A stretch of DNA of 64,000 bases, taken from Escherichia phage vB_EcoM_PHB13. Both the position numbers and the translations under genes were made by a program. Position 1 is the stretch's first letter. Each line of letters starts with the position of its first letter. Below, piece by piece: positions 9,197 to 61,434 of the stretch. The notes under the pieces are model-generated. The model saw nothing but the letters and a program-made list of their open reading frames with translations. It did not search any database and had not been told where the DNA came from. The stretch lies in the sequence record MK573636; one strand, 5' to 3'.

Positions 9197-9226
9197 CCCC
9201 GAAAATTTTTCGGGGTTTTTTGTTTT
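9197..9226 (+). terminator. intrinsic terminator after 57B
   Basis: CCCCGAAAATTTTTCGGGG hairpin plus T-tract. Confidence 0.65.
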
Positions 9227-9232
9227 TAGTTG

Positions 9233-9261
9233 TTGACAACCATAAACGACTATAGCATAAT
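9233..9261 (+). promoter_or_regulatory. sigma70-type early promoter cassette (TTGACA-N17-CATAAT) with conserved leader
   Basis: TTGACA, 17-bp spacer, CATAAT, then leader ATCGAAACGAAACAC...AGGAGAATCAAA-ATG. Confidence 0.6.
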
Positions 9262-9298
9262 GCACATATCGAAACGAAACACACTTAGGAGAATCAAA

Positions 9299-9676
9299 AT
9301 GATGATGATGTTTAAAGATAAATTCGAATGTCACTACACCCGTAACTTTGACTTAGTATCCCGCTACTACATTCATAAAGAAACTGGTACGCAAGTAGTT
9401 CTTGAATCTCACAGCGAAGTAGGATTCGATTCAACAAAAGTAGCAATTAGTGCTCGCTTCTGGGATAACGGCAAATTTGCTTATATCGCTTGGAACGACG
9501 ACGAAAATGTAATTACAGTAGCTTTCGGTGATGACTACTACACTAAAAAGACTTTCGATAGTAAGCCATCAAATGAATACCTGAAAGCGTATGTGCAGCA
9601 CATGTTCCAACGTGTTCTGACCGGAATGGAAATCAATGTCATGAAAGACATTGTAGACGAAGTAAAATATTCTTAA
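9299..9676 (+). CDS. hypothetical early protein
   Basis: ATG 8 nt after the GGAG of the conserved leader; the ORF-track start at 9230 is a TTG inside the -35 element. Confidence 0.5.
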   Translation: MMMMFKDKFECHYTRNFDLVSRYYIHKETGTQVVLESHSEVGFDSTKVAISARFWDNGKFAYIAWNDDENVITVAFGDDYYTKKTFDSKPSNEYLKAYVQHMFQRVLTGMEINVMKDIVDEVKYS

Positions 9677-9682
9677 AAATAG

Positions 9683-9711
9683 TTGACAATATGAAACGGG
9701 GGTAGTAAGAT
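9683..9711 (+). promoter_or_regulatory. sigma70-type early promoter cassette
   Basis: TTGACA-N17-TAAGAT followed by the AAGGAGAATCAAA-ATG leader. Confidence 0.55.
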
Positions 9712-9742
9712 ACCACCACAAACAAACGAAAGGAGAATCAAA

Positions 9743-9901
9743 ATGAAATTTATCGGTAAAACTTTTATGTTCGTAGCTGGTACTCTGTTTACTGCAACTC
9801 TGTTAGCTGGTGGGTTGGATATCTTTACTACATTTGAAACTTTCGGGTATACTGTAGCATCGGGTGCTCTCTTCGGATTGGGTTTAGCGATTAGCAAATA
9901 A
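9743..9901 (+). CDS. small hydrophobic protein (52 aa)
   Basis: ORF below the ORF-track size cutoff, directly behind a promoter cassette with consensus SD; predicted single or double TM peptide. Confidence 0.4.
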   Translation: MKFIGKTFMFVAGTLFTATLLAGGLDIFTTFETFGYTVASGALFGLGLAISK

Positions 9902-9910
9902 GGTGATAAT

Positions 9911-10114
9911 ATGGAATTGGATATGGTTAAAGCAAAATTTATGGGTAAGGATAAGAGCGGTAAAACATTTGTTATTAATAGAACATTGTTTCGCTCTGAC
10001 CTTAAGTGGGTGACACAACAATTTGCGGAAGTCAACGAGGCAGTTGTGACATGCTTCGTTGATGATAAAAAAGTTTTTGAAATTGATCGTCGTGGGGTGT
10101 CTAATGATCACTAA
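9911..10114 (+). CDS. hypothetical protein
   Basis: 67 aa ORF with AAGGTG SD. Confidence 0.4.
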   Translation: MELDMVKAKFMGKDKSGKTFVINRTLFRSDLKWVTQQFAEVNEAVVTCFVDDKKVFEIDRRGVSNDH

Positions 10115-10301
10115 ACTGTTTAGCAATACTTTGTTTATGATTGCATTTGTTTTCTTTCTGTGTCTGATGATCGGTGTTGTTACAGTAGGTAGCTATTCCG
10201 GTGTTACCTTAGATGATTTTTGCAAACTTGTTATGGTCTCGTTTATACCTAGTATTCTGCTCGCTTTATGTGGTGCTTTTAAATGGCTTTGTACGCTATG
10301 A
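10104..10301 (+). CDS. small membrane protein
   Basis: Hydrophobic 65 aa from an ATG overlapping the previous stop (ATGATCACTAA). Confidence 0.4.
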   Translation: MITKLFSNTLFMIAFVFFLCLMIGVVTVGSYSGVTLDDFCKLVMVSFIPSILLALCGAFKWLCTL

Positions 10302-11029: not shown

Positions 11030-11199
11030 ACTAAAGACAGCGCGGTTAGAATGATTTGGACGTCACCTAGCCGCATTTATTGCAGCGTATGGGGTGATCC
11101 GGTACGCTAAAGCATTCACTTGCTAGGCCGCTAGCAGGTTGGAGACAAGGAAGATTCGCTACCTTCCCCTATAAGCCACTCTTCGGAGTGGCTTTTTTA
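11030..11199 (+). ncRNA. candidate structured small RNA
   Basis: About 170 bp without ORF; TATAAATA late-promoter-like motif at 11015-11022 upstream; four consecutive predicted hairpins then an intrinsic terminator. Syntenic with the T4 tRNA/stable-RNA region, but no tRNA T-loop consensus. Confidence 0.3.
11174..11199 (+). terminator. intrinsic terminator
   Basis: AAGCCACTCTTCGGAGTGGCTT hairpin followed by TTTTTT. Confidence 0.65.
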
Positions 11200-11226
11200 T
11201 TGCCTAAATTTTTTTGAAAAAAGTGG

Positions 11227-11255
11227 TTGACACCAGACCCAGCCTATAGCATAAT
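11227..11255 (+). promoter_or_regulatory. sigma70-type early promoter cassette
   Basis: TTGACA-N17-CATAAT followed by ACACCCATCGAAACGAAACAC...GGAGAATCAAATT-ATG. Confidence 0.6.
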
Positions 11256-11301
11256 ACACCCATCGAAACGAAACACACTTTCTTAAACGGAGAATCAAAT
11301 T

Positions 11302-11487
11302 ATGGCACGTCGCATCACTAAAGCACTGAAAGCAGTAAGCAAAGAAAACGTAGTAGCTATTCTGGTAATCTGGGGTTATAACGAAGAATCCGCTAAACAG
11401 AAAGTTGAAGCAGGGTTTGAACTGGCAGTAAAAGCAATGCCGAATGATGACTCTGTAGGGCTGGCAAACTATATTGCATATTTCTGA
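11302..11487 (+). CDS. hypothetical early protein
   Basis: 61 aa behind a promoter cassette. Confidence 0.45.
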   Translation: MARRITKALKAVSKENVVAILVIWGYNEESAKQKVEAGFELAVKAMPNDDSVGLANYIAYF

Positions 11488-11495
11488 TAAAAGTG

Positions 11496-11524
11496 TTGAC
11501 AGGGGAGGATAACTCCCCTACAAT
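11496..11524 (+). promoter_or_regulatory. sigma70-type early promoter cassette with spacer palindrome
   Basis: TTGACA, then AGGGGAG-GATAA-CTCCCCT inverted repeat filling the spacer, then TACAAT. Confidence 0.55.
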
Positions 11525-11553
11525 ACAACCATCAACGAAACGGGAGAATCAAA

Positions 11554-11781
11554 ATGATTAACTTTAAAGACGCAGCAAAAGAAATTATCGACTTTGAGCG
11601 TGAACTGTTTGAGATGGAACCGCAGATGGGTAAAATGGAACTGGCTAACCAGATCTGGGCTACTAGACTGAATCCGGCTGATCGCTTAGAGATCATGAAC
11701 ATTGTAGGCGCAAGCGACATGAAAGGTGGTGCTATGGCTAAACTCCGCAAATGCACCGCATACATTGCTGATCAACTGTAA
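11554..11781 (+). CDS. hypothetical early protein
   Basis: 75 aa behind a promoter cassette. Confidence 0.45.
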   Translation: MINFKDAAKEIIDFERELFEMEPQMGKMELANQIWATRLNPADRLEIMNIVGASDMKGGAMAKLRKCTAYIADQL

Positions 11782-11990: not shown

Positions 11991-12179
11991 ATGGAAGACA
12001 AAATTGAACAATTACGCGAATCCGCTAAAGAGCATGGTATGAGCGAAGAGTTTGTAGAATGGTTTATTTCTAAAAAGGCTGATTCCTGCGGGTGCTTTAC
12101 CTTCATCACTATGTCCATTATGTGGGAAGGTTGGAAAGGTGCGGTAGAAACTGCCCTAGAAATTATGAAAAAAGACTAA
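11991..12179 (+). CDS. hypothetical protein
   Basis: 62 aa ORF with SD. Confidence 0.35.
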   Translation: MEDKIEQLRESAKEHGMSEEFVEWFISKKADSCGCFTFITMSIMWEGWKGAVETALEIMKKD

Positions 12180-12188
12180 AAAAAGTTG

Positions 12189-12217
12189 TTGACACACGAT
12201 AGGGTGTATAGCATAAT
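12189..12217 (+). promoter_or_regulatory. sigma70-type early promoter cassette
   Basis: TTGACA-N17-CATAAT followed by ACACCCATCGAAACGAAACAC...AAGGAG...ATG. Confidence 0.6.
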
Positions 12218-12259
12218 ACACCCATCGAAACGAAACACGAACTACTAAGGAGTATCAAA

Positions 12260-12586
12260 ATGAAACCAGTATCTGTTAAAGTTATCTTCTCTGAATCTTC
12301 TGTATTCGCTAACGCAAACGAAGTATTCCACTTCGAAGACTTCGAGCGTAAAGCACAGGACGCGGCAGCAAAAGCCTATGAAAGCGAATATGACAAAACT
12401 CAAATCGAGGTTACTTTCGAAAACGGCACTACTTACGCTTGCCGCCTTGACCTGGGTGATCGTCTGTCTGGCTTCCGTCACCATGTAGAGAAGACAATCG
12501 CTTTCTCTAAAACCGAAAAAGGAAAACACTACTTTTCTGTTTTCGGTACTGAAAATCTGGATTTCTTGAAAACTGTTTCTTTCTAA
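12260..12586 (+). CDS. hypothetical early protein
   Basis: 108 aa behind a promoter cassette. Confidence 0.45.
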   Translation: MKPVSVKVIFSESSVFANANEVFHFEDFERKAQDAAAKAYESEYDKTQIEVTFENGTTYACRLDLGDRLSGFRHHVEKTIAFSKTEKGKHYFSVFGTENLDFLKTVSF

Positions 12587-17292: not shown

Positions 17293-17534
17293 TGTATGTG
17301 ATGACACCTTATAGTAGTAGATCGTACATCACCCCAAATAAACTGTATAAGTTTACGCCAGATGAAAGAATGTCTACCTACGGTTACATCAAAGATGATA
17401 AAGGATACAAACTTTTTATTTCTCTGAAAAGCTGTGCATACTTAGACGACCGTCCGTGGACACTGATCGAAGAACCAAAACAACCTGAGAATAAAGGTCT
17501 TTGGAATGTGCTAAAAAAATTCTTGAAAAAGTAG
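17289..17534 (+). CDS. small paralogous protein B
   Basis: About 81 aa paralog of 17098; ATG after GGAG SD. Confidence 0.45.
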   Translation: MMYVMTPYSSRSYITPNKLYKFTPDERMSTYGYIKDDKGYKLFISLKSCAYLDDRPWTLIEEPKQPENKGLWNVLKKFLKK

Positions 17535-17563
17535 TTGACAGCATGAAACGGGGGTAGTAATAT
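17535..17563 (+). promoter_or_regulatory. sigma70-type early promoter cassette with spacer palindrome
   Basis: TTGACA...GGGGG-TAGTAATATA-CCCCC...; the -10 (TAATAT) lies in the loop of the palindrome; leader ATCGAAACAAAGGAG. Confidence 0.55.
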
Positions 17564-17591
17564 ACCCCCATCGAAACAAAGGAGTATTAAA

Positions 17592-17927
17592 ATGAGTGTT
17601 AAAGAAGTATTTGTTTATACTGACTATGAAGGGTGTGCCTATCTCACTGCTGGAAAACTTTACCGTTGTGAGATTATTCATGGTACGTTAGGTCGAATTA
17701 TGTGCGATCCTATTACAAAATTGTGGAAAAATAATCCTAGTGAGCGAGAAACTCTTATTAACCTAGATCCAGACGGTTGTTCACATTTGGACTATAGAAA
17801 ATGGCATATAGTTACACATGATGCTTATGGTATTCATCTTGCTACTAAAGAATTAACTATTGACAAGTTCAAGTTTAAAGAAATCCCGTTTGTATACTGG
17901 CTTCGCAATTTGTTTAAGAAAGGATAA
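17592..17927 (+). CDS. small paralogous protein C
   Basis: 111 aa, third member of the family (KLYRCE...DPDGCSHLDYRKW). Confidence 0.45.
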   Translation: MSVKEVFVYTDYEGCAYLTAGKLYRCEIIHGTLGRIMCDPITKLWKNNPSERETLINLDPDGCSHLDYRKWHIVTHDAYGIHLATKELTIDKFKFKEIPFVYWLRNLFKKG

Positions 17928-17931
17928 TAAA

Positions 17932-18354
17932 ATGGAAACAATTAACGTACATGTTCGCCGTAGTAAGCTGCGTAGATTCTTCGAAACCGAAATGCGCAAA
18001 ACCAATGCGCAGATCAAAGAAAAGTGCTTGAATGATGGTTACGGTGAGTATATTTTCATTCGCTTTAGTCCGCATATGATCGACCGTCTAACCGATCGTC
18101 ATATCGATGAACATAAGACAATGGAACTATTCAATAAGGTAGAAACTCGTTTGCCGGAGATCTTCGACTTCCTGAGAATGGAAGACCGACCTAATCGATT
18201 AGAAATTACTGACGGTAACATGTGGATCGGAATGACAGTAGATCTAATCGAAGAGGGTAAACCGTATCACGGTCTATGCTGCCGAATGATTATAGAGAAT
18301 CCAAAACGACTTGCGGGTAAAATGTCGGCTGTTGTTTTGAGGGTAGACCAATAA
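17932..18354 (+). CDS. hypothetical protein; possible RegB-like endoribonuclease by position and size
   Basis: 141 aa from the ATG at 17932 (METINVHVRRSKLRRFFETEMRK...RLEITDGNMW...). Located between the e-equivalent region and tk, where T4 carries regB (153 aa). Assignment is by synteny only. Confidence 0.3.
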   Translation: METINVHVRRSKLRRFFETEMRKTNAQIKEKCLNDGYGEYIFIRFSPHMIDRLTDRHIDEHKTMELFNKVETRLPEIFDFLRMEDRPNRLEITDGNMWIGMTVDLIEEGKPYHGLCCRMIIENPKRLAGKMSAVVLRVDQ

Positions 18355-18376
18355 TGGAAATTGGTTAAATTAATGC

Positions 18377-18405
18377 TTGACTTTCTGGTGATAGGGCTAT
18401 ATTAT
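18377..18405 (+). promoter_or_regulatory. sigma70-type promoter upstream of the transglycosylase gene
   Basis: AATGCTTGACT ... TATATTAT; -35 overlaps a TGCTT MotA-box-like motif. Confidence 0.4.
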
Positions 18406-18439
18406 GGAATCAGAAAGTTAAGCCAAACAGGAGAAATTA

Positions 18440-19030
18440 ATGTTAAAAGTTCTAAAAGCGATAGTATTGAGTCTGTCACTAGCCGTTGGTGCTACACACG
18501 CATCGACTAGCGCACCGATCAAAAAAGCGCCGATAGACAACTTTACAGCACACCAACTAGATAATTTACATTTCGCCTATCAATACGGCGAACAATTCGA
18601 GAAAAGCGGTAAGTTGAAAAAGCACCATCCGAATATTCGCTATAACGGAAAGGGTTTAGGCCACATCCTGGCGGGTATCGCATGGCAAGAATCAAGCGCG
18701 GGTGCAAACTTAGCACCAAAGAAAAATCATCATGCTTATGGATTATTTCAAAATTACCTTAAAACGGTGAAAGCGAAAAATGCAAAGCGCGGTGTTAAAA
18801 TGAGTGATCGCCAGACTATCAACTTTATAATGAATCGCGAGGTTTCTGCATTCTACGCGATGGATGAGTTAGCATACTGGCTGGATGTTCGAAACGGTAA
18901 TATCCGACTCGCGCTAGCTTCTTACAATGCAGGATGGAACTATAAAGCCGGTTTAGGTTATGCTGATGATGTACTAAAAAAGGCTAACCATCTAAAGAGT
19001 AAAGGCATTCTTAAAACTAAACGCTATTGA
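18440..19030 (+). CDS. secreted lytic transglycosylase-like protein (SLT domain)
   Basis: 196 aa; N-terminal signal peptide (MLKVLKAIVLSLSLAVGATHA); SLT signature AWQESS...GLFQ...YNAG. Confidence 0.6.
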   Translation: MLKVLKAIVLSLSLAVGATHASTSAPIKKAPIDNFTAHQLDNLHFAYQYGEQFEKSGKLKKHHPNIRYNGKGLGHILAGIAWQESSAGANLAPKKNHHAYGLFQNYLKTVKAKNAKRGVKMSDRQTINFIMNREVSAFYAMDELAYWLDVRNGNIRLALASYNAGWNYKAGLGYADDVLKKANHLKSKGILKTKRY

Positions 19031-21905: not shown

Positions 21906-22139
21906 TGTTAGTCACCGTGGGATGCATACCATAAGTAAAAGAATACTAGCATTAACACAACTATTTGGCTTCCTCATAATTTCGCGTGTTCAATTACTGC
22001 CGAATCGGAAGACCCGTCTAAGACGAGGAAGGGTTATCATTGGAAAGGGATGGTGAATTGGTTACTATGTTTAACTAGTTTAGCAAAGGTCGATTCAAAC
22101 ACTACTATACAAATGGACGTGAATAAAATATAATCAAAA

Positions 22140-22164
22140 GCCATCCGAAAGGGTGGCTTTTTTG
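22140..22164 (+). terminator. intrinsic terminator
   Basis: GCCATCCGAAAGGGTGGC hairpin plus TTTTTT. Confidence 0.65.
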
Positions 22165-22174
22165 TTTTTAGGTG

Positions 22175-22203
22175 TTGACAACCGGAATAGTGTATAGCAT
22201 AAT
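22175..22203 (+). promoter_or_regulatory. sigma70-type early promoter cassette
   Basis: TTGACA-N17-CATAAT followed by GCACACATCGACAACAAAGGAGAATCAAAA-ATG. Confidence 0.6.
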
Positions 22204-22233
22204 GCACACATCGACAACAAAGGAGAATCAAAA

Positions 22234-22449
22234 ATGATTAATCCAGTAGCGGCAGCACTTGCTTCCGAAGAAACTTTGAAGTATATGGTAGAACATGCAG
22301 CAAAGAAAGGAGAAATTGTTACTGCCGATGAGATCGTAGAAACCATGCTCCGCGATCCGAATGGTAACACTGCAAAGTTTTTCGGTGATCATCTTAAACT
22401 GGCTTACAAAACAATTATGGAGACCGTGAAAAAATGCAAAATGATGTGA
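22234..22449 (+). CDS. hypothetical early protein
   Basis: 71 aa behind a promoter cassette. Confidence 0.45.
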   Translation: MINPVAAALASEETLKYMVEHAAKKGEIVTADEIVETMLRDPNGNTAKFFGDHLKLAYKTIMETVKKCKMM

Positions 22450-23119: not shown

Positions 23120-23400
23120 AAGACACAAACGAATTTAACTGTATTCAGGTAAGCCCGAATTTTATTGTTCCATCACTGGTGACTAAGCTGAATGGTCATA
23201 TGGTCGCTTTGTCTTCCACACCGCCAGAATCAGGAAAGTTTATTACTATCGTAGTTTATGCGGGGCAAATTTTCTCTCATGATTGCTGCATGAAAAATGG
23301 TCAGTTGATGGTTGCAAATTATGACTACGGCGACCTTGAATGGGAAGTTTTAGGACTGGCTAAAGGCGCTGAAATTCTGGGCTATATTCGATTAATTTAA
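23116..23400 (+). CDS. hypothetical protein
   Basis: 94 aa; ATGA overlap. Confidence 0.4.
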   Translation: MKDTNEFNCIQVSPNFIVPSLVTKLNGHMVALSSTPPESGKFITIVVYAGQIFSHDCCMKNGQLMVANYDYGDLEWEVLGLAKGAEILGYIRLI

Positions 23401-23418
23401 ATTTTTTCTTAGAAAGTG

Positions 23419-23447
23419 TTGACAGCGATCCGGTGTCATTGCATAAT
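23419..23447 (+). promoter_or_regulatory. sigma70-type early promoter cassette
   Basis: TTGACA-N17-CATAAT followed by ACACCCATCGAAACGAGATAC...AGGAGAATCAAAA-ATG. Confidence 0.6.
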
Positions 23448-23488
23448 ACACCCATCGAAACGAGATACACTTTCTAGGAGAATCAAAA

Positions 23489-23710
23489 ATGGCAACTGTT
23501 AAAATTATCAAATCTTCCGCTGGTTTCGGTTTCATGCGTGGAGCTAAGTACCCGATGATTATTGAAAACGTTGCCATCGAAGATGGTATGGCTAAAGTGA
23601 CCAGCCGTCAATTGTTCGAAGCTGGTGTTAAAACTGCTGAATCATGGGCGCTTCGTTACCCAAACAAAACTTGGTCTTTCTTCCTGAATGGAGAAGCAGA
23701 GGTCATCTAA
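23489..23710 (+). CDS. small protein, KIEII/GVKLPII family member
   Basis: 73 aa; KIIKSSAGFGFMRGAKYPMIIE resembles the N-termini of ORFs at 26061, 26277 and 26534. Confidence 0.45.
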   Translation: MATVKIIKSSAGFGFMRGAKYPMIIENVAIEDGMAKVTSRQLFEAGVKTAESWALRYPNKTWSFFLNGEAEVI

Positions 23711-24550: not shown

Positions 24551-24587
24551 GGGCTATCCTTCGGGATAGCCTTTTTGTTTTTTGGGT
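24551..24587 (+). terminator. intrinsic terminator
   Basis: GGGCTATCCTTCGGGATAGCC hairpin plus T-tract. Confidence 0.65.
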
Positions 24588-24588
24588 G

Positions 24589-24616
24589 TTGACAATGAAA
24601 ATCATAGTGCTATAAT
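24589..24616 (+). promoter_or_regulatory. sigma70-type early promoter cassette
   Basis: TTGACA-N16-TATAAT followed by GCACACATACCAACTAAGGAGAATCAAAG-ATG. Confidence 0.6.
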
Positions 24617-24645
24617 GCACACATACCAACTAAGGAGAATCAAAG

Positions 24646-24936
24646 ATGACCGCTGAACAATTAATCAAACATATCCGCAACATTATTTGGGATCTGTCTG
24701 GTGATAAAGAGGAACAGGCTGAACGCATTTTAGCTAAACTCTATGAGCGCCGTGACCGTGGAGTATCCGTAAAGAAAGTAGAAACTTTCAAAGAGTTATC
24801 TTTCATCGAAGCTAAAAAGGATGGATTAATTTATCAGTTGACAGATGGTTACTGGTGCTATGATAATACTCGCTATGACACCGCGACTGATGCATTAAAA
24901 GCATGTAATGACCATCTTCGCAAAACTACAATTTGA
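24646..24936 (+). CDS. hypothetical early protein
   Basis: 96 aa behind a promoter cassette. Confidence 0.45.
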   Translation: MTAEQLIKHIRNIIWDLSGDKEEQAERILAKLYERRDRGVSVKKVETFKELSFIEAKKDGLIYQLTDGYWCYDNTRYDTATDALKACNDHLRKTTI

Positions 24937-26872: not shown

Positions 26873-27101
26873 CAGAGTATTCATTGTCCTGATGGAGTCG
26901 GAAAACTATCCTGAACTCTCTAAAACGCGTTTTCCGTGCGTTGTTGAAGCATATAAGGTAAATGCACCGGATAAACAGTTTATCGTGTTAGCTAGCGAAA
27001 TAGAGCGGCTAGGGGCGATTCCTAAACATGATGAATACGTGTTTCGTAAGGTGTACTCTGTACATCATTTTGATGTAGTAGTTAATTTACTAAAATCATA
27101 A
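26772..27101 (+). CDS. hypothetical protein
   Basis: ORF-track frame; the true start is probably an internal ATG near 26892 after the upstream stop. Confidence 0.3.
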   Translation: MKTRTKEIMKRRLHDLNIEENLMKSKTGFYNQCNRVFIVLMESENYPELSKTRFPCVVEAYKVNAPDKQFIVLASEIERLGAIPKHDEYVFRKVYSVHHFDVVVNLLKS

Positions 27102-27109
27102 AAAAGTTG

Positions 27110-27138
27110 TTGACAGGGGATCGCGTATCCCCTATACT
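27110..27138 (+). promoter_or_regulatory. sigma70-type early promoter cassette with spacer palindrome
   Basis: TTGACA-GGGGATCGCGTATCCCC-TATACT followed by ...ACGAAACACACTTTCTTAAGGAGAATCAAA-ATG. Confidence 0.55.
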
Positions 27139-27180
27139 ACACACATCAAAACGAAACACACTTTCTTAAGGAGAATCAAA

Positions 27181-27459
27181 ATGAGCAATCTGTCTTTCGC
27201 TAAAGTAGAAATTTCTAAAACTCGCGGTGGCTTTAAAATCAAAACTTCCAATATCACTTCCTGCCGTGGTTGCGACCAGTTTGCTCGTGACCTTGCTGTG
27301 AAGCTGGGTATCAAAACCTTTACCGTTGAGAGCGGATCTAACTGGACTACCCTGATTGTTGCTGCCGCTTGGATCAATGGCGAGTATGTGGAAAAAGCAT
27401 ACTTTGACATTTTCTACGACTACGAAGAAAAATGCTTTTATGCACTGCAAGACATGTAA
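27181..27459 (+). CDS. hypothetical early protein
   Basis: 92 aa behind a promoter cassette. Confidence 0.45.
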   Translation: MSNLSFAKVEISKTRGGFKIKTSNITSCRGCDQFARDLAVKLGIKTFTVESGSNWTTLIVAAAWINGEYVEKAYFDIFYDYEEKCFYALQDM

Positions 27460-27777: not shown

Positions 27778-27783
27778 AAACTG

Positions 27784-27812
27784 TTGACATGAAAATGCGG
27801 TTATCCTATAAT
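27784..27812 (+). promoter_or_regulatory. sigma70-type early promoter cassette
   Basis: TTGACA-N17-TATAAT with ATGCGG...CCGCAT inverted repeat around the -10; leader of the GAGGATTATATT-ATG type. Confidence 0.55.
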
Positions 27813-27846
27813 AGCCGCATCAAATGAACGATGTGAGGATTATATT

Positions 27847-31734: not shown

Positions 31735-31737
31735 TAG

Positions 31738-31766: not shown

Positions 31767-31797
31767 ACTCCCATCTAATCAAGAAGGAGAATCAACA

Positions 31798-43945: not shown

Positions 43946-44971
43946 ATGAAAATTTTGCTTTTAGGTGATCTGCATACTGGCATCGGTGGCGATGATCCGT
44001 GGGTGCATGAGTATATTTTAGACACGATCAAGAAAGCTGTTGATTATTCTAAAGAAAATGGTATTAAGATATGGATTCAAACAGGGGATTGGTTTGATTG
44101 TCGCAAGGCTATCACACATGAAACCATGAAATTTAACCGTACTAAGGTCATCCCATTACTGGAAGAGGCAGGAATCACCTGTTATATCACGGTCGGGAAT
44201 CATGATATGTTTAAACGCAATAAGATCCAGCCTAACGCGCCGCGTGAAGTGTTAAGCCAGTATGATTGCATTAAGGTTATTGATAAGCCAGAAACAGTTA
44301 CCTTTGATGGGGTATCATTCGACCTGTTCCCGTGGTTTTGTGATGACAATAAATCCGAGGTTTTAGAGTTTATTCAAAATTCATTCAGCGAATATTGTGT
44401 AGGCCATTGGGAATTGTCCGGCTACTATTTCTATAAAGGGTTAAAATCCGAAGGTTATAGCGCGGACTTCCTCAAGAAATACCGTGAAGTGTTTTCCGGT
44501 CACTTTCATACTATCAGTGATGGCGGTAACGTAACGTATATTGGCACACCATACACACTAACGGCTGGCGACGAAAATGATCCGCGTGGTTTTTGGGTAT
44601 TCGATACAGATACACACAAAAAGGAGTTTATCCAGAATGACAAAACTTATCATGTGCGTATCACTTACCCGTCAGATGATAAAATCGATGTAGAACGCTT
44701 TAAAGGGCTTAGTGTGCGCCTAATTGCAACGGTCGCTGATAATGGGTTAACTAAGTTAGAAAGCGCGTTAGAAGCCGTTGTGCATAAGCTAAAAGTTGTC
44801 CATAAGCTGGAGAGTAGCGCATCACAGGAAACAGGTGTTATTGAAGTTAAAAGCACTATTCAGATGGTCTATGAATATCTGGAAGAACAAAACCTAGAAC
44901 CGGAAGAACTTGCGGCGGTCAAGCGTATTTCTGATGAACTTTTAGCCGAAGTAAATAACGCAAAAAGTTAG
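43946..44971 (+). CDS. 47: recombination endonuclease subunit gp47 (Mre11-like)
   Basis: 341 aa; calcineurin-like phosphoesterase motifs (LGDLHTG, GDWFD, GNHD, GHFH); T4 gp47 is 339 aa. Confidence 0.85.
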   Translation: MKILLLGDLHTGIGGDDPWVHEYILDTIKKAVDYSKENGIKIWIQTGDWFDCRKAITHETMKFNRTKVIPLLEEAGITCYITVGNHDMFKRNKIQPNAPREVLSQYDCIKVIDKPETVTFDGVSFDLFPWFCDDNKSEVLEFIQNSFSEYCVGHWELSGYYFYKGLKSEGYSADFLKKYREVFSGHFHTISDGGNVTYIGTPYTLTAGDENDPRGFWVFDTDTHKKEFIQNDKTYHVRITYPSDDKIDVERFKGLSVRLIATVADNGLTKLESALEAVVHKLKVVHKLESSASQETGVIEVKSTIQMVYEYLEEQNLEPEELAAVKRISDELLAEVNNAKS

Positions 44972-45000
44972 TTGACGCGGGGAGAAATCCCCGTTATACT
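44972..45000 (+). promoter_or_regulatory. sigma70-type early promoter cassette with spacer palindrome
   Basis: TTGACG-CGGGGAGAAATCCCCG-TATACT. Confidence 0.55.
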
Positions 45001-45025
45001 CTCTAAAAATTGATTGGAGGTTGTT

Positions 45026-45271
45026 ATGGTTACTAATGCACTGAAAGAAATCAACGAAGGTTTGTCGAAATTCACTAAGATCCATGTATTTGAGGTTGTG
45101 CGAGATGGTCAGTATATGCTATCATTTCGGTCTAACTATGGTTTATGGACTCATGACGAAATCCCATTTGATCGTGAAAATATCACCAAAGAGTGGCTAA
45201 CAAACATCGTATCCCGTAAGGTTGCTGATATTACCCAGAATGTTATTGCTCGTGAATCGTGGAGTATGTAA
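45026..45271 (+). CDS. hypothetical protein
   Basis: About 81 aa after GGAGG SD. Confidence 0.4.
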   Translation: MVTNALKEINEGLSKFTKIHVFEVVRDGQYMLSFRSNYGLWTHDEIPFDRENITKEWLTNIVSRKVADITQNVIARESWSM

Positions 45272-51405: not shown

Positions 51406-51768
51406 ATGATTGAAATTAATTTGATTAGTCCTGAAAACTTCCTTAAAATTAAGGAGACTTTAACCCGCTGCGGCATTGCCAACAATCGTGACAAGACCCT
51501 GTATCAGTCTTGTCATATTCTCCAGAAGAAAGGGCGCTATTACATCGTTCATTTCAAGGAGTTGTTGAAATTAGATGGTCGTAGTGTTAAAATGACGTGG
51601 GAAGATGAATTACGCCGTAATAACATTGCAAAACTTCTTGCGCAGTGGAATCTGTGTACCCTGATTGATAGTGATTTTGAAACTACCGAAGTTAATAATT
51701 TCCGTGTACTGTCTTTCAAACAGAAAGAAGAGTGGACGCTGATCGAGAAATATCAGATCGGACGCTAA
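51406..51768 (+). CDS. regA: translational repressor RegA
   Basis: 120 aa; MIEINL...HILQKKGRYYIVHFKELL; T4 RegA is 122 aa at the same position. Confidence 0.8.
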   Translation: MIEINLISPENFLKIKETLTRCGIANNRDKTLYQSCHILQKKGRYYIVHFKELLKLDGRSVKMTWEDELRRNNIAKLLAQWNLCTLIDSDFETTEVNNFRVLSFKQKEEWTLIEKYQIGR

Positions 51769-51789
51769 GATACTGATGGGATAGGGGTA

Positions 51790-51818
51790 TTGACAAACTA
51801 AGTCGATTCCCCTATAAT
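51790..51818 (+). promoter_or_regulatory. sigma70-type promoter upstream of gene 43 with palindrome around the -35
   Basis: AGGGG-TATTGACAAACTAAGTCGATT-CCCCT then TATAAT; canonical TTGACA-N17-TATAAT. Confidence 0.55.
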
Positions 51819-51850
51819 GAGTGTCTTTCGTAAGTGAAGGAGTTTATATT

Positions 51851-54529
51851 ATGTATTTTCTGTCATGTGAGCGAGTAGGTGATAAGATCTACGAGCGTTA
51901 TATTGATGATGCTGGACAAGAACAAGAGCGTTACGTTGAATATACGCCAACTTTATTTCATCATGCCGCGCCTGGTATGGTTACGAATTATAAAGATATC
52001 TATGGCAAGCCTTGCATTGCTAAAAAATTCCCCTCTATGAACGAGGCCAACAAATGGCGTAAAAAGATGGGGGAGATGGGGCAAGAGGCACTAGGGATGG
52101 ATGATTTTATCATCTCCTATCTGTCTGATACGTATAAAGGCGAGATTCGATATGACCGAAATAAAATCCGTGTAGCATGGGTTGATATCGAGGTCACTGC
52201 CCCAGAATTTCCTAAACCAGAAGAAGCGAAATATCCTATCGATGCAATTACGCATTATGATTCCGTACATGATCGTTTCTTTGTATTTGATTTGAAAGGA
52301 AAAAACGGTGAATCTTGGGAAGCAAGCAAGTCTATTCTTCGCCCAGATATTGTAGAACGTGTTGTTTATAACGTCTATGACACAGAAGATGAATTGCTGT
52401 TAGAATACATCCGATTCTTTGAGGAAAACCGACCCGTTGGTTTCACTGGCTGGAACACAGAAACATTCGATATTCCATATATCATTAAACGTATCAGTAA
52501 TAAGTTCGGAAGTAGAACCGCTAACCGTCTAAGCCCGTGCGGTAAGATTAAATCCCGAATCTCACAGGATGATTTTGGCAACGAGCGTGAAGCATTTACG
52601 ATCATGGGGATCGAAAGCCTTGATTATATTGACCTGTACAAGAAATTTAGCTTTACGACTCAACCAACATATGCATTAGATTATGTTGCTGAATACGAGA
52701 CAGGAATCGGTAAGGTTGATTATGATGGTCCGTTAAAGAAATTGCGTGATGACAACCATCAACTTTACATCGATTATAACATCGGCGACGTTGATCGTGT
52801 GCTGGCGATTGATAAAAAGCGTGGATTTATCGATCTGGTGTATAGCCTATGTTTCTATGCAAAGATTAAATTTAACCATGTTTATAACCCGATGAAAGTA
52901 TGGGATGCTATTATCTTCGGATCTCTGAAAGCTGAGGGTAAAGTAGTACCGGAAAATAAGATACAACCTAAGCAGACGTATCCAGGCGCATTTGTAAAAG
53001 AACCTGTGCCAAATGCTTACCGTTGGATGATGAGCTTTGACTTAACAAGTTTGTACCCATCTATTATTCGACAGGTTAATATTTCGCCTGAAACAATCGC
53101 TGGATCTTTTGATGCTGCACCGATGCACGAGTATATCAATAAAACTGCACCACGTCCTAGTGATGAGTATTCTTGCTCGCCTAACGGATGGATGTATCGA
53201 AAAGATATTCATGGTATCGTACCGATTGAGATTAAAAAGGTATTCGATCAGCGTAAGCAGTACAAAAACATGATGTTGGCATGTGATCGCAATGCTGAAC
53301 TATGTAAAGCGATTCTACACGATGAAAATCATGTTTATGGGGGAACCATTAGCTATAGCGTTGAAGTGCGTCACGACTTCGATGAAGCGTTTAAATCGAT
53401 GCTTTCTGAATTAAGTAAAGACGCCTTAGAGAAATTGCTGGAAGAATGTAAAGACGAGTCGATCTTGTGCAATACAAACCAGCTTTCTCGAAAAGTTTTG
53501 ATCAACTCCCTTTATGGTGCGTTGGGGAATCCTAAATTCCGTTTTTATGATCTCCGTAACGCTAGTGCGATCACACTGTTCGGTCAGCTTGCAATTCAGT
53601 GGATTGAGCGTAAGATTAACGAATACTTAAACGAGCTTTGCGGAACAACCGATTTTGCATATGTTCGTTATTGTGATACTGACTCCGTTTATGTGCTGGT
53701 TAACAATGTTGTTGATAAGGTTGGCGGGGAAGACCGTTTCGACGATACCGAAAAACTTGTTGACTTCCTTGATAATTTCGGTAAACATCGAATGGAACCT
53801 ATTATCGACAAGGGATATCGCGAGTTATGCGAGTACATGAACAACTATGAGCACTTGATGTTTATGGACCGCGAGGCAATTGCTGGTCCTCCGTTGAAAT
53901 CTGCGGGTATCGGTGGATTCTGGACTGGTAAAAAGCGTTATGCTCTTAATGTTTGGGATATGGAAGGAACGCGCTTTGCTGAACCTAAGCTAAAAATCAT
54001 GGGCTTGGAAACGCAACGTAGCTCCACCCCGAAAGCATGTCAGAAATCACTGAAAGAATGTATTCGCCGTATGTTGCAGGAAGGTGAAGAGTCATTGCAG
54101 GAATACTACGGTATTTTTGAGCAAGAATTTAGAAAACTTGACTATCTTGATGTTGCTGCGGTATCATCTGCAAACAACCTACAGAAATACAGCGATTCAA
54201 ACGGGTATCCGATTAAGGGTTGTCCGTATGCGGTTAAGAGTGTATTGTGTTATAATCGTAATGCTCGAAAATTCGGACTAGATCCGATTCGTGAAGGCGA
54301 GAAGGTTATGATTGTACCGCTGAAAGATCGAAATCCGTTTGGAGAAATCTGTTTTGGTTGGTTGTCCGGTACTCGTATTCCTCCAGAGATTGAAAGCGAG
54401 GTGTTAAAGTGGTTAGACTGGTCTTTGTTGTTTAATAAGACTTTCGTCAAACCACTGGAGAACATTACAACGGCTGCAAAGCTGCAATATGAAAAAGTGG
54501 CATCTCTTACAGACCTGTTTGACATTTAA
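51851..54529 (+). CDS. 43: DNA polymerase gp43 (family B)
   Basis: 892 aa from the ATG at 51851; exonuclease motifs (WVDIEV, YNIGDVD), polymerase motifs (SFDLTSLYPSIIRQ, KILINSLYGALG, YCDTDSVY); strong resemblance to T4 gp43 throughout. Confidence 0.92.
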   Translation: MYFLSCERVGDKIYERYIDDAGQEQERYVEYTPTLFHHAAPGMVTNYKDIYGKPCIAKKFPSMNEANKWRKKMGEMGQEALGMDDFIISYLSDTYKGEIRYDRNKIRVAWVDIEVTAPEFPKPEEAKYPIDAITHYDSVHDRFFVFDLKGKNGESWEASKSILRPDIVERVVYNVYDTEDELLLEYIRFFEENRPVGFTGWNTETFDIPYIIKRISNKFGSRTANRLSPCGKIKSRISQDDFGNEREAFTIMGIESLDYIDLYKKFSFTTQPTYALDYVAEYETGIGKVDYDGPLKKLRDDNHQLYIDYNIGDVDRVLAIDKKRGFIDLVYSLCFYAKIKFNHVYNPMKVWDAIIFGSLKAEGKVVPENKIQPKQTYPGAFVKEPVPNAYRWMMSFDLTSLYPSIIRQVNISPETIAGSFDAAPMHEYINKTAPRPSDEYSCSPNGWMYRKDIHGIVPIEIKKVFDQRKQYKNMMLACDRNAELCKAILHDENHVYGGTISYSVEVRHDFDEAFKSMLSELSKDALEKLLEECKDESILCNTNQLSRKVLINSLYGALGNPKFRFYDLRNASAITLFGQLAIQWIERKINEYLNELCGTTDFAYVRYCDTDSVYVLVNNVVDKVGGEDRFDDTEKLVDFLDNFGKHRMEPIIDKGYRELCEYMNNYEHLMFMDREAIAGPPLKSAGIGGFWTGKKRYALNVWDMEGTRFAEPKLKIMGLETQRSSTPKACQKSLKECIRRMLQEGEESLQEYYGIFEQEFRKLDYLDVAAVSSANNLQKYSDSNGYPIKGCPYAVKSVLCYNRNARKFGLDPIREGEKVMIVPLKDRNPFGEICFGWLSGTRIPPEIESEVLKWLDWSLLFNKTFVKPLENITTAAKLQYEKVASLTDLFDI

Positions 54530-54590
54530 GATAAAGTGTGTATAATGGCGGGTGTTGGGTGACGATACCCGCCAATGTGAGAAATATATT

Positions 54591-54779
54591 ATGAGAGACA
54601 TTGAAAAGATTAAACGTGAACGTGAGGAAGGCATAGAGCATTTCAAGAAAGTTCACGGAAATCACAGTAACGAAGTATTTGTGACGATCAATGTTGATGC
54701 GATGAAAAAGTTAATTCAAGAGCACTACAAAGATCGAATAACAATGAAGCAATTAAAGTATTACGGATTAACTGAATAG
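54591..54779 (+). CDS. small hypothetical protein
   Basis: About 62 aa from GAGAAATATATT-ATG; the only ORF between genes 43 and uvsX. Confidence 0.4.
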   Translation: MRDIEKIKREREEGIEHFKKVHGNHSNEVFVTINVDAMKKLIQEHYKDRITMKQLKYYGLTE

Positions 54780-59054: not shown

Positions 59055-59258
59055 ATGATTACGATGAAATGTCTTAAAAGCACATATGCACTTTTTGAAG
59101 CCGGAAAAGAATATGAATTTACAGAACTTGACCCGGTAGGACGTTTTCGTGTATTCTCTTACACATCGCCAGATGGTAGTGTCTACAAATTTGGCTTAGA
59201 TGAAAACGGAGAGAATGAAAATGAAAGTGTAGGAACTTTCATGAAATTTGAGCTATAA
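59055..59258 (+). CDS. hypothetical protein
   Basis: 67 aa. Confidence 0.35.
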   Translation: MITMKCLKSTYALFEAGKEYEFTELDPVGRFRVFSYTSPDGSVYKFGLDENGENENESVGTFMKFEL

Positions 59259-59267
59259 GAGGTTATT

Positions 59268-60296
59268 ATGATTTACTACGCAGATTATGAAATAGCGGAA
59301 AAAGCCATATACGGCGAACGAAATTTTAAACGGTTGCATACTAGCTCATTTACGCTGGTCTGTAGTTGTCCGATCTGCGGTGACTCAAAGAAAAATCATA
59401 CTCAAGCGCGATTCCGTATCTATACCTATAAGGATAGTTTGCGTTGCGGCTGTTTCAACTGTAACTACAATCAGCCGTTAGGTGAATTTCTCAAACAGTA
59501 TAAGCCGGACCTATTCAGGGAATGGCTTATGGAACGACGGAAGGAACAAGGCGACCACAAGAACACCACGTTCAAGCCACTGAAAAAGGTAGAAAAGCCG
59601 GAGATTAAGAAAGTGCAAACATTGCCTTTCTGCGAGAGATTAGATACTCTTCCGGCTAATCATCCTATAATAAAGTATGTCAGTGATCGTTGCATCCCTC
59701 ACGATAAATGGGATCTTCTGTATTTCACGAGAGAATGGCAAAAGGTAGCAAATCACATTAAGGCTGATACTTTCAAGAATCCACAACCTGAACCGCGTTT
59801 AGTGATTCCTATCTTTAACCGCGAGAACAAGATAGAATCCATTCAGGGGCGAGCATTGAGAAAGGATTACGGAAAGACCAAATATATGACGATTAAAACT
59901 CACGAGTTAGCGAGTAAGGTCTATGGTCTTGAACGCGCCGATCCGAGTAAACCAGTGTATTTCTTAGAAGGTCCGATCGATTCATTGTTTATTGATAACG
60001 GGTGTGCAATTACTGGCGGTACGTTGGGATTAGATGAAATCCCTTTCCCAGACCAGCGAGTGTTTGTACTTGATGCGGAACCACGGTCTGCCGATACAAT
60101 GCACCGACTGGAAAAGTTTATCAACGCAGGGGAAAAGATTGTATTATGGGATCGTTGCCCGTGGCATTCTAAAGACGTTAACGCCATGATTCAGGATGAG
60201 GGTGCTACACGCGACCAGATCATGGAATATATCAAAGAGAACACCGTACAAGGTCTGATGGCTAAAATGCGGTTTATGAAATATTGTAAATTTTAA
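59268..60296 (+). CDS. 61: DNA primase gp61
   Basis: 342 aa, same length as T4 gp61; N-terminal zinc ribbon (CSCPICGD...CGCFNC) followed by TOPRIM region. Confidence 0.85.
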   Translation: MIYYADYEIAEKAIYGERNFKRLHTSSFTLVCSCPICGDSKKNHTQARFRIYTYKDSLRCGCFNCNYNQPLGEFLKQYKPDLFREWLMERRKEQGDHKNTTFKPLKKVEKPEIKKVQTLPFCERLDTLPANHPIIKYVSDRCIPHDKWDLLYFTREWQKVANHIKADTFKNPQPEPRLVIPIFNRENKIESIQGRALRKDYGKTKYMTIKTHELASKVYGLERADPSKPVYFLEGPIDSLFIDNGCAITGGTLGLDEIPFPDQRVFVLDAEPRSADTMHRLEKFINAGEKIVLWDRCPWHSKDVNAMIQDEGATRDQIMEYIKENTVQGLMAKMRFMKYCKF

Positions 60297-60310
60297 TTAA
60301 TGAGGTGAAT

Positions 60311-60829
60311 ATGTCAGAATTTAATTCTTGTGCTGGTCTGGTTAACGAAAAAGATATTAACGCGGCTATCGCCGCATATCATCACGCTATTGCAGAAGGT
60401 AAAGATCCGTTTCAGGTGATGCTCGAAATGCAAACTGGTTTGCAGGTTGCATTATCCGAAAAATTTGATTGGGTCCCAAATCCAACTAAGCTAGAGACTT
60501 GCGGTGAAATGCTGGATTGGATGCAACGGATGGATGACGCTATCGCAGACGAAACACGAGAGCTTTACACATCGCTGGGTGGAATGTCCAATGGTAAAGA
60601 TGCAAGTGCAATCTGGAAAATGTGGAAAAAGAACCACGGAGAAGCGCGAGCGCGTAAATTCTCTGAACTGTCACCGGAAGATCAGCTTGAAGTGAAATTT
60701 GAATTTGTGGACGCGATCCACTTCATTCTGTCAAAGATGATCCCGCTGGGTATTGACGCTCAAGAACTCTTTATTCTGTACTATCTGAAAAATGCTGAAA
60801 ACTTCGCCCGTCAAGAACGCGGCTACTAA
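60311..60829 (+). CDS. gp56-like nucleotide pyrophosphatase candidate (assignment by position and size)
   Basis: About 172 aa acidic protein after gene 61, where T4 carries gene 56 (dCTPase, 171 aa). No active-site motif verified. Confidence 0.4.
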   Translation: MSEFNSCAGLVNEKDINAAIAAYHHAIAEGKDPFQVMLEMQTGLQVALSEKFDWVPNPTKLETCGEMLDWMQRMDDAIADETRELYTSLGGMSNGKDASAIWKMWKKNHGEARARKFSELSPEDQLEVKFEFVDAIHFILSKMIPLGIDAQELFILYYLKNAENFARQERGY

Positions 60830-60865
60830 AAATTAGTTGACACTACTCTATCATGGTTTTATTAT

Positions 60866-60896
60866 GCCTCCCGTCGAAAGATTGGAGGCTTTTTTA
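60866..60896 (+). terminator. terminator-like hairpin sequestering the SD of the downstream gene
   Basis: GCCTCCCGTCGAAAGATTGGAGGC hairpin plus TTTTTT, ending 3 nt before the ATG at 60899; the only GGAGG upstream of that ATG is the 3-prime arm of the stem. Confidence 0.5.
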
Positions 60897-60898
60897 TT

Positions 60899-61402
60899 AT
60901 GCAATTTACACCAGAAGAACTTAACATCATTGATGAGGTGATGAACTCTAAAGAAAATATCGATATGTCGATCCTTAATGGATTGATTGAAAAGACTGAG
61001 CGGTTAGTGCATCATGAAGCCTTGTATCGCGGTGTGAGCAAAAGAGAAGGTCGTAAGCTGGATACCTTAATTGTAGGCGATTCTTTCGTTGTAGAGCGTC
61101 CTATGAGCTTTACGCCACTGCAATCAACAGCAGAGGACTTTGCAACCGATGTTTATGCAACAGGAAAGATTATTGCAATAAAACCTACCAAGCCTTGCAT
61201 GAATTATTACGAACATGCTATTGACCGAGTGGTGTCTAAAGAGTATGACAATCCGACTACTCGACTGTCTTTGTATGCTATGTTGGCAGATGAGCGCGAG
61301 TGCATATACAAGACAGGGACGACCATGATCCTTGACGAGATCGAGGAAGTTTACGCGTGTAATGGCGATCTGATAGAGATTTACAAATTTTCTTTAATTT
61401 AA
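60899..61402 (+). CDS. putative mono-ADP-ribosyltransferase (ModA/ModB-like)
   Basis: 167 aa with an ordered R (ALYRGVSKR) - S/T (MSFTPLQST) - ExE (DERE) triad like R-S-E ADP-ribosyltransferases; position corresponds to T4 modA/modB between 56 and srd. Confidence 0.4.
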   Translation: MQFTPEELNIIDEVMNSKENIDMSILNGLIEKTERLVHHEALYRGVSKREGRKLDTLIVGDSFVVERPMSFTPLQSTAEDFATDVYATGKIIAIKPTKPCMNYYEHAIDRVVSKEYDNPTTRLSLYAMLADERECIYKTGTTMILDEIEEVYACNGDLIEIYKFSLI

Positions 61403-61405
61403 GTG

Positions 61406-61434
61406 TTGACAGCACAAACCAGATAGACAATAAT
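61406..61434 (+). promoter_or_regulatory. sigma70-type early promoter cassette
   Basis: TTGACA-N17-(C)AATAAT followed by ACACACATACCAACTAAGGAGAATCAATT-ATG, a leader identical to the one at 24617-24645. Confidence 0.55.

Follow-up and report, generated by a model that had tools for sequence, protein, structure and literature searches.

Promoter-early-stem-loop cassettes as a repeated family in a 64-kb stretch of Escherichia phage vB_EcoM_PHB13

Introduction

Across a 64,000-nucleotide (nt) stretch of Escherichia phage vB_EcoM_PHB13 (sequence record MK573636; the whole stretch is called the window below), between positions 9,197 and 61,434, much the same arrangement of sigma-70 promoter, short leader and Shine-Dalgarno (SD) sequence recurs ahead of one gene and another. 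Are these repeats copies of one element, what would such an element do for the genes behind it, and does it serve to move those genes about? An earlier note on this DNA, written from the letters and a list of open reading frames (ORFs), had likened the repeats to the promoter-early-stem-loop elements (PeSLs) proposed to mediate modular gene shuffling in T4-type phages. We find that they are one family of cassettes and very probably PeSLs, that is, composite early regulatory units of RB49/phi1-type phages, and that recombination between them is not the main source of gene-content differences in the genomes that we compared.

The window belongs to Krischvirus, the RB49/Phi1-like T4-type coliphages, and it was for phages of this group that PeSLs were defined. 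Arbiol et al. (2010; PMC2839356) described 52 copies in phi1 and 51 in RB49, each with an AT-rich tract, a consensus sigma-70 promoter, a stem-loop that is often of the polyG/polyC kind, and SD and ATG at the 3' end; the stem-loop can take five positions, most commonly between the promoter boxes or over the -10. Promoter activity was demonstrated there with lacZ fusions of two PeSLs (PeSL193/192 and PeSL206/205), both from other regions of the genome. Comeau et al. (2014; PMC4122927) give the RB49/phi1 consensus as TTGACA-N17-TATAAT with Gn-loop-Cn stems.

Results

The promoter repeats are one family

All 19 -35 coordinates listed in the earlier note proved exact on inspection of the window. 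The -35 hexamer is TTGACA at 17 sites and TTGACG at two, the spacer measures 16–17 nt at all 19, and the -10 hexamer agrees with TATAAT at four to six of its six positions. SD and ATG follow the -10 at a distance of 25–46 nt, with the SD 7–9 nt ahead of the ATG in 19/19 cassettes, and the ORFs so opened are 50–892 amino acids (aa) long. Every cassette lies on the + strand and between called genes, and 16 fall within 9.2–37.6 kb, amid small ORFs without a Pfam match. Sequences of the form TTGACA-N15-18-TANNNT number 28 in the window where 4.5 are expected, and 27 of the 28 are on the + strand. The 25 nt upstream of the promoters have a mean AT content of 0.72, against 0.60 for the window and a maximum of 0.68 among 5000 random sets.

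The -35 and -10 hexamers are plain E. coli consensus, and strong sigma-70 promoters without any family relationship could have come to look alike by converging on it; 44972 and 51790 do have little in common beyond the hexamers. We tested this explanation and found it unsupported. A profile built from the copies (nhmmer) recovers 19/19, with E values of 1e-10 to 1e-16 for 16 of them, 1e-9 for 33884 and 1e-4 to 1e-5 for 44972 and 51790, the most divergent pair. Identity continues through discriminator, leader and SD: the longest exact stretch common to two copies is 32 nt (five of the 171 pairs reach 20 nt), and the block GGAGAATCAAA (at most one mismatch) has 12 copies against 1.8 expected, each on the + strand and each in a cassette. 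Four copies with an upstream terminator (9170–9300, 22110–22236, 24525–24648 and 36325–36446) are moreover collinear over about 125 nt from their stop-codon context TGTAATTTTA. Because the similarity reaches well beyond the hexamers, through leader and SD, the copies resemble each other more than unrelated sigma-70 promoters do, as the note had supposed, and we regard convergence as highly improbable.

More than 20 copies had been claimed. The sites listed come to 19, and the figure is exceeded once three looser members at 18377, 54519 and 60837 are added, all of them intergenic promoters that the published definition, being looser, would admit; 18377 is marked as a promoter in the deposited genome of phage GEC-3S. 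The top unlisted match of the profile, 58060 (E 1e-4), scores about like 44972 and was rejected as a cassette, since it sits within an ORF and has no SD-ATG; all remaining matches have E >= 0.4. The members are listed below, with hairpin and terminator energies in kcal/mol.

9196..9301, + strand: cassette, terminator class; terminator 9196-9216, -35 at 9233, -10 CATAAT, leader ATCGAAACGAAACAC, GGAGAATCAAA, ATG 9299
9658..9745, + strand: cassette, -10-spanning hairpin GGGGGTA/TACCACC with one mismatch; -35 at 9683, ATG 9743
11173..11304, + strand: cassette, terminator class; terminator 11173-11194, -35 at 11227, ATG 11302
11471..11556, + strand: cassette, spacer hairpin AGGGGAG-GATAA-CTCCCCT (-12.8); -35 at 11496, ATG 11554
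12164..12262, + strand: cassette, -10-spanning hairpin GGGTGTAT-AGCATA-ATACACCC (-10.6); -35 at 12189, ATG 12260, LPD25-domain ORF
17510..17594, + strand: cassette, -10-spanning hairpin GGGGGTA-GTAATA-TACCCCC (-12.5); -35 at 17535 right after the upstream stop codon, ATG 17592; unit includes regB
18352..18442, + strand: looser member, unlisted earlier; -35 at 18377, TTGACT-17-TATTAT, GGAGAAATTA-ATG 18440; promoter in GEC-3S
22136..22236, + strand: cassette, terminator class; terminator 22136-22161 (-16.0), -35 at 22175, ATG 22234
23394..23491, + strand: cassette, weak -10-spanning hairpin GGTGT/ACACC; -35 at 23419, GAGATAC-variant leader, ATG 23489
24551..24648, + strand: cassette, terminator class; terminator 24551-24572, -35 at 24589, TGCTATAAT, leader ATACCAACTAAGGAGAATCAAA, ATG 24646
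27085..27183, + strand: cassette, spacer hairpin AGGGGAT-CGCGT-ATCCCCT (-9.3); -35 at 27110, ATG 27181
27759..27849, + strand: cassette, -10-spanning hairpin ATGCGGTTAT/ATAGCCGCAT with one G.T pair (-12.1); -35 at 27784, SD GAGGATTATATT, ATG 27847
31713..31800, + strand: cassette, -10-spanning hairpin ATGGGAGTA-GTAAAA-TACTCCCAT (-13.1); -35 at 31738 just past the EndoVII gene, ATG 31798
32624..32711, + strand: cassette, -10-spanning hairpin GGGAGTA-GTAAGA-TACTCCC (-10.4); -35 at 32649, SD GAGGATTATATT, ATG 32709 (frd.2)
33859..33944, + strand: cassette, -10-spanning hairpin GGGAGTAT-GCTATA-ATACTCCC (-11.8); -35 at 33884 overlapping the upstream TGA, ATG 33942
36349..36446, + strand: cassette, terminator class; terminator 36349-36370 (-16.0) directly 3' of nrdD, -35 at 36387, ATG 36444
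37511..37609, + strand: cassette, spacer hairpin GGGGATC-GCGA-GATCCCC (-12.5); -35 TTGACG at 37536, ATG 37607
44947..45028, + strand: cassette, spacer hairpin CGGGGA-GAAA-TCCCCG (-12.3), divergent leader; -35 TTGACG at 44972 right after the gp47-like gene, ATG 45026
51765..51853, + strand: divergent member, hairpin absent; -35 at 51790, TATAAT, ATG 51851 (family B DNA polymerase, g43)
54494..54593, + strand: member unlisted earlier, leader hairpin GGCGGGT...ACCCGCC (-19.8); TTGACA-16-TATAAT at 54519 right after g43, ATG 54591
60812..60901, + strand: member unlisted earlier, leader hairpin GCCTCC...GGAGGC plus T-run (-13.8); TTGACA-17-TATTAT at 60837, ATG 60899
61381..61466, + strand: cassette, hairpin absent; -35 at 61406, AATAAT, leader ATACCAACTAAGGAGAATCAAT, ATG 61464

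The cassettes had been described as bracketing small ORFs; the units that they open span from one to about twenty genes rather than one small ORF each. The 12189 cassette opens with a gene (12260–12586) whose 108-aa product has an LPD25 domain (large polyvalent protein associated domain 25, E 3e-14), and a Pfam scan of seven other cassette-driven proteins gave no match.

Leaders, predicted starts and translation signals

Conservation beyond the -10 continues as AC-C-CATC, and we place the predicted transcription start (+1) at the A of CATC. RB49 early promoters prefer C at -3 to -1 (PMC1524935), which agrees with this placement, and according to Nolan (2006) mapped 5' ends bear out the RB49 early consensus; a paper on Krischvirus transcription start sites was not found in the literature. 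The leaders so predicted are 19–40 nt long (mean 28) and 48% A, with a mean minimum free energy of -1.8 kcal/mol and a z value of +0.55 against shuffles, and are thus less structured than shuffled sequences.

GGAG occupies the SD position in 15/19 cassette genes and in 27 of 84 other + strand genes (p=2.5e-4), and the exact block GGAGAATCAAA is confined to the first genes of cassettes. The conserved leader proposed in the earlier note is borne out as to the SD block and the A-rich leader, both of which recur, but the long leader CATCGAAACGAAACAC (five copies with at most three mismatches, 0.7 expected) marks a five-copy subfamily and is no general feature. A second translation start module, (T)GAGGATTATATT-ATG, has 16 sites in the window with at most two mismatches (0.18 expected), all on the + strand and spanning 13183–55919 (for example 13183, 24935, 26265, 32073 and 55905). 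It belongs mostly to internal operon genes, where an upstream TGA often overlaps the SD, and also to three cassettes (27784, 32649 and 33884).

Two kinds of stem-loop and where they stand

A stereotyped layout with the terminator first had been proposed, and it holds at five of the 19 sites (9233, 11227, 22175, 24589 and 36387), where a stem of -12 to -16 kcal/mol is followed by a T-run, and not at the others. Ten cassettes carry an embedded GC-rich Gn-loop-Cn hairpin of -9 to -13 kcal/mol without a U-tract, in the spacer at 11496, 27110, 37536 and 44972 and spanning the -10 at 12189, 17535, 27784, 31738, 32649 and 33884. These hairpins, which the earlier note had overlooked, are the stem-loop of the PeSL. 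Perfect stems of at least 6 bp are present at 9/19 promoters, against 0.7 in shuffles and 1.1 in random segments of the window; they were counted by a script anchored on the 3' arm, the MAFFT alignment of the -10-spanning class being ungapped with the hairpin registers out of phase. The stems at 9683 and 23419 are weakened, that at 9683 being perfect in 5/5 relatives compared, and there is none at 51790 and 61406. The looser members 54519 and 60837 have their stem-loops in the leader; at the latter the hairpin (60866–60898), between the promoter and ATG 60899, sequesters the SD, an attenuator-like layout unlike that of the other cassettes.

Upstream terminator and embedded hairpin are mutually exclusive, the hairpin being found in none of the five terminator-class cassettes and in 10 of the other 14 (Fisher p=0.011), and the two classes differ in the gap from the previous stop codon, which is 43–203 nt in the terminator class and -4 to 18 nt in the hairpin class (Mann-Whitney p=9e-4). 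In the four collinear terminator-class copies (9233, 22175, 24589 and 36387) the terminator stems differ in sequence, and all of them pair. After two of these cassettes the first five codons are identical (ATGATGATGATGTTT, MMMMF, at 9299–9313 and 36444–36458). We rejected the idea that the two drive paralogous genes; the proteins are otherwise unrelated (E=0.88), and the cassette homology therefore extends 15 nt into the ORFs.

In eight genomes, the window and seven relatives, we count 27 distinct perfect stems, with freely variable loops and compensated changes in the stems (for example GGGTGTAT/ATACACCC, GGGAGTAT/ATACTCCC and GGGGGTA/TACCCCC), while substitutions between orthologues fall mostly in the 5' spacer and in the loops. 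The 3' arm of each -10-spanning stem ends at about -1, given the predicted +1, and such a stem would therefore be absent from the cassette's own transcript and form only on read-through RNA or in DNA. Could the embedded repeats, then, act as DNA, forming cruciforms or binding a phage protein that would tune the promoter or initiate recombination? Their overlap with promoter elements, be it the spacer or the -10, their want of U-tracts and the presence of an endonuclease VII gene in the window would all suit such a role, but compensated stem changes around free loops point to a structure and not to a sequence-specific site, and no cassette has both such a hairpin and a canonical RNA terminator. 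The 5' arms, furthermore, contain 211 G and 21 C, a one-sidedness that a symmetric DNA structure does not require, and a strand-specific (RNA) role thus fits better. The pairing test points the same way in a very small and underpowered sample, with two credible non-Watson-Crick pairs that are both G.U (G.T in DNA), tolerated on the sense strand only, and no credible A.C pair. We consider action at the DNA level quite unlikely and favor an RNA hairpin.

The cassettes in related phages

A 4-kb stretch of the window shows 97–98% identity to ELT4, Sf20, Phi1, GEC-3S and about 50 further records, and a 25-kb stretch about 95–96% to the best records, with several indels; no exact twin was present among the records of the searched collection. 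About 58 Krischvirus records each contain 8–13 matches to a 98-nt cassette query, and outside the genus the query finds weak partial matches only, in a few Cronobacter and Citrobacter phages, so that by sequence the family is genus-specific. The 17 cassettes from 9233 to 44972 have collinear orthologues in the compared relatives, save where a relative lacks the region. The deposited annotation of GEC-3S places promoters, -35/-10 boxes and terminators at positions orthologous to the cassettes, and the G2248 record labels several of the embedded hairpins as putative terminators. An Rfam scan of the whole window gave no family match. A scan of IMG/VR with the SD 16-mer AAGGAGAATCAAAATG returned at least 120 lone matches scattered over unrelated contigs and no further cassette variants, because there the 16-mer is a generic strong ribosome binding site.

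The 51790 and 54519 sites flank g43, a family B DNA polymerase gene, and 33884 and 36387 lie around nrdD; in RB49 and phi1, too, PeSLs stand on both sides of g43 and are associated with nrdD (PMC2839356). Since every sequence-level feature of the PeSL definition that we looked for was found, the identity proposed in the earlier note, PeSL-like early promoter cassettes of a T4-type phage, is borne out: the cassettes are the published PeSLs, correctly rediscovered and already known.

Do the cassettes shuffle genes?

In its strong published form the shuffling model makes PeSLs primarily recombination linkers, whose conserved sequence drives modular exchange through excision and integration of mini-circles between flanking copies. 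Arbiol et al. (2010; PMC2839356) detected mini-circles by PCR, with crossovers between the -10 and SD regions, and found that 10 of 14 differential ORFans adjoin a PeSL. We chained positions 1–46,000 of the window to GEC-3S, an RB49 assembly, LF73P4, Phi1, G2248, JK32 and JSE, and obtained 21 indel or replacement events of at least 50 bp, which merge into 14 variable loci. Two of the 42 junctions and two of the 14 loci touch cassettes, whose footprints cover 5.0% of the sequence (binomial p=0.63). Junctions thus fall in cassettes at chance level, with no enrichment in the 46 kb, and the shuffling role raised in the earlier note shows only faintly in this sample of seven relatives. Most events are insertions of homing endonucleases and the rest are changes inside operons; several relative-specific inserts of 525–782 bp are likewise of the homing-endonuclease type.

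One junction is nevertheless clean. The gp38 adhesin gene and its flanking terminators (window 23710–24622) are absent from the locus in G2248 and LF73P4, where a single spacer-hairpin promoter stands instead (counterparts at 29297–29335 in L006 and 27120–27158 in L004). There the order is ORF080, TTGACACGGGGAGAAATCCCCGTATAAT, leader CATACCAACTAAGGAGAATCAAA, ORF078, and in the window it is ORF080, terminator, gp38, terminator, a different promoter and then the same leader. At the right junction (about 24622) homology resumes downstream of the -10 and ahead of the leader in the 24589 cassette. The hairpin core of 44972 recurs ahead of the ORF078 homologue in G2248 and LF73P4, the 24589 leader is found again at 61406, a distance of 37 kb, with 26 nt exact, and of two promoter-core types and two leader types all four combinations are present.

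Because of this junction and the reassortment of modules, we conclude that recombination between cassettes does occur. Against the larger claim are the chance-level count of junctions, the prevalence of homing-endonuclease insertions and intra-operon changes, the shortness of the exact homology noted above, and a uniform direction and fixed distance to the ATG, as expression signals would show. Cassette recombination is not the main source of gene-content differences in this sample, and we think it unlikely that linking is the primary role of the elements.

Several variable loci deserve mention in their own right. The event adjoining the 22175 cassette is an internal deletion in the upstream ORF of about 2.1 kb, of which only the ends remain in the window (21912–22131, just 5' of the 22136 terminator); G2248 (G2248_00084) and JK32 (JK32_00086) have the complete ORF, and Phi1 retains part of it. 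A window-specific insertion of 1.1 kb (4721–5857) separates gp2 from the head completion gene (gp4). Within it is a minus-strand ORF of 340 aa (4723–5745) with its own TTGACA-N17-TAAAAT promoter (5837–5809), distantly similar to MobD/HNH-type homing endonucleases and without a Pfam match; the insertion is absent in six of the compared relatives (the LF73P4 record is without the region) and 99% identical in Ec_Makalu_002 and Cognac. A homing endonuclease gene with HNH_3 and AP2 domains (30198–30953) stands between dam and nrdC, and is present in GEC-3S and absent in RB49, Phi1, G2248, JK32 and JSE.

The SD block resembles a RegB/S1 site

In T4 early mRNAs the RegB/S1 target is a single-stranded site of 11 nt with the consensus GGAGRAYARAA, and in most cases it coincides with an early gene's SD (Durand et al. 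2006, PMC1702504). The cassette SD block GGAGAAUCAAA matches this consensus at 10 of 11 positions and is present in nine identical copies and three one-mismatch variants, all within cassettes; nine of the best 11 + strand matches in the window are cassette SDs. As to single-strandedness, the low structure predicted for the cassette leaders is in keeping with such a site. The window also encodes the enzyme:

17922..18354, + strand: regB; ORF 17932-18354, ATG 17932, Pfam REGB_T4 (E 4e-48)

The gene's own SD, GGATAATAAAA at 17922–17932, is the sole 11/11 match to the consensus in the window, and this agrees with published work on RB49, where regB has a GGAU SD that is cleaved in vivo (PMC3014915); autoregulation of regB is likewise published. 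The main PeSL paper (Arbiol et al. 2010) makes no mention of RegB. We suggest that the cassette SD block is a candidate RegB/S1 target, with the regB product as its putative trans-acting partner.

Discussion

The anatomy, copy number and orthology of the cassettes, the conservation of their stems and the exclusivity of the two layouts are direct observations; how the cassettes work we can propose from the same features. Each cassette would be a self-contained early unit, read by the host sigma-70 RNA polymerase right after infection, in which an A/T-rich tract, near-consensus -35 and -10 boxes, a start at the A of CATC, an A-rich unstructured leader and a strong SD follow each other in this order. 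The one strong stem-loop of each cassette would lie upstream of its own +1, and hence only on RNA read through from upstream, where it could end, attenuate or 3'-stabilise the upstream transcript and so insulate the units from each other. Where there is room after the previous gene, this part would be played by a canonical U-tract terminator, and where genes abut, by a hairpin in the spacer or over the -10. The SD block GGAGAAUCAAA is probably also a RegB/S1 cleavage site, through which the phage RegB would later shut the mRNAs off, and the shared cassette sequence would occasionally serve as a recombination site, as a side effect and not as its main role.

A more specific version can be put forward only tentatively, and we would sooner expect it to fail than to hold: that the cassettes are three-part units of insulation and timing, made of a stem ending at -1, an unstructured A-rich leader, and an SD that is itself the RegB/S1 cleavage site. 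If so, cleavage by RegB at the SD would silence the gene behind it, and the same cut on read-through RNA would leave a 3' end some 20–45 nt past the hairpin, with the hairpin now shielding the upstream message. The four cassettes with alternative SDs (three GAGGAUUAUAUU and one GAGAGGACAAC) would escape RegB shut-off.

Several points weigh against the proposed mechanism as a whole. The +1 and the early timing rest on the consensus and on the citation of 5'-end mapping in RB49. Stems are weak or absent at four sites (23419, the internal stem of 22175, 51790 and 61406), efficient intrinsic termination is not to be expected from the sequence of hairpins that have no U-tract, and terminator-like activity was reported for the stem-loop of PeSL211/210 only (PMC2839356). 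At position 8 the cassette block has C, whereas RegB sites strongly favor A; the nine sites that match the RegB consensus are copies of one sequence and so amount to a single observation; and 10/11 matches are not in excess in the window (11 against 7.8 in shuffles). The chance-level frequency of indel junctions in cassettes belongs here as well.

As a discovery the family has little weight: PeSLs have been known in the same phage group since 2010 and in further T4-like phages since 2014, and these promoters are already annotated in a near-identical deposited genome (GEC-3S). For specialists we offer some refinements. Stem-loop placement follows a simple packing rule, in which a roomy gap after the preceding gene goes with a separate terminator and abutting genes go with an embedded hairpin that ends at -1; the likeness of the SD block to a RegB/S1 site suggests a built-in early shut-off; and the lack of junction preference in 46 kb against seven relatives tempers the claim that the cassettes drive shuffling, although the one clean cassette junction moves gp38, a host-range adhesin. 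These refinements are incremental, and the mechanistic ones among them are proposals read from sequence.

Among known systems, the RegB/S1 sites of T4 share with the cassettes the GGA at the 5' end, the A-rich continuation, the position (usual in T4) at the SD of an early gene and a single-stranded setting, which in the cassettes is predicted, and differ in preferring A at position 8 where the cassettes carry C; by sequence the latter are candidate sites. Morons and integron gene cassettes are likewise small accessory genes with their own promoter and terminator, and the authors of the PeSL study liken units of PeSL and ORFan to integrons (Arbiol et al. 2010, PMC2839356). They differ in that the elements described here have no integrase, no attC-type site and no insertion on the opposite strand, all being co-oriented with the early genes.

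The PeSL analogues of T4/PST and KVP40/nt-1 (PMC4122927) and the classical T4 early promoters come closer, as they too are composites of terminator and promoter before early ORFans in hyperplastic regions. Their promoters read TTTACW...TAYWAT or TTGYVH...TAWWAT, whereas those of the window are near-perfect sigma-70 consensus, and their stems are AT-richer (AGNA-loop-TCNT or A3-4G3-loop-C3T3-4) and lie just upstream of the promoter, whereas here Gn/Cn stems are often embedded in it. With the PeSLs of phi1 and RB49, finally, nothing essential differs. The genus is the same, at 95–98% identity, as are the sequence definition and the genomic sites (among them the two sides of g43 and the neighborhood of nrdD), and the density is comparable (52 published copies per 164-kb genome, 19–22 in the 64-kb window). 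To that description we add the exclusivity of terminator and hairpin according to the gap, the stems ending at -1, the RegB-like SD, and, for the region compared, a frequency of indel junctions in cassettes no higher than chance.

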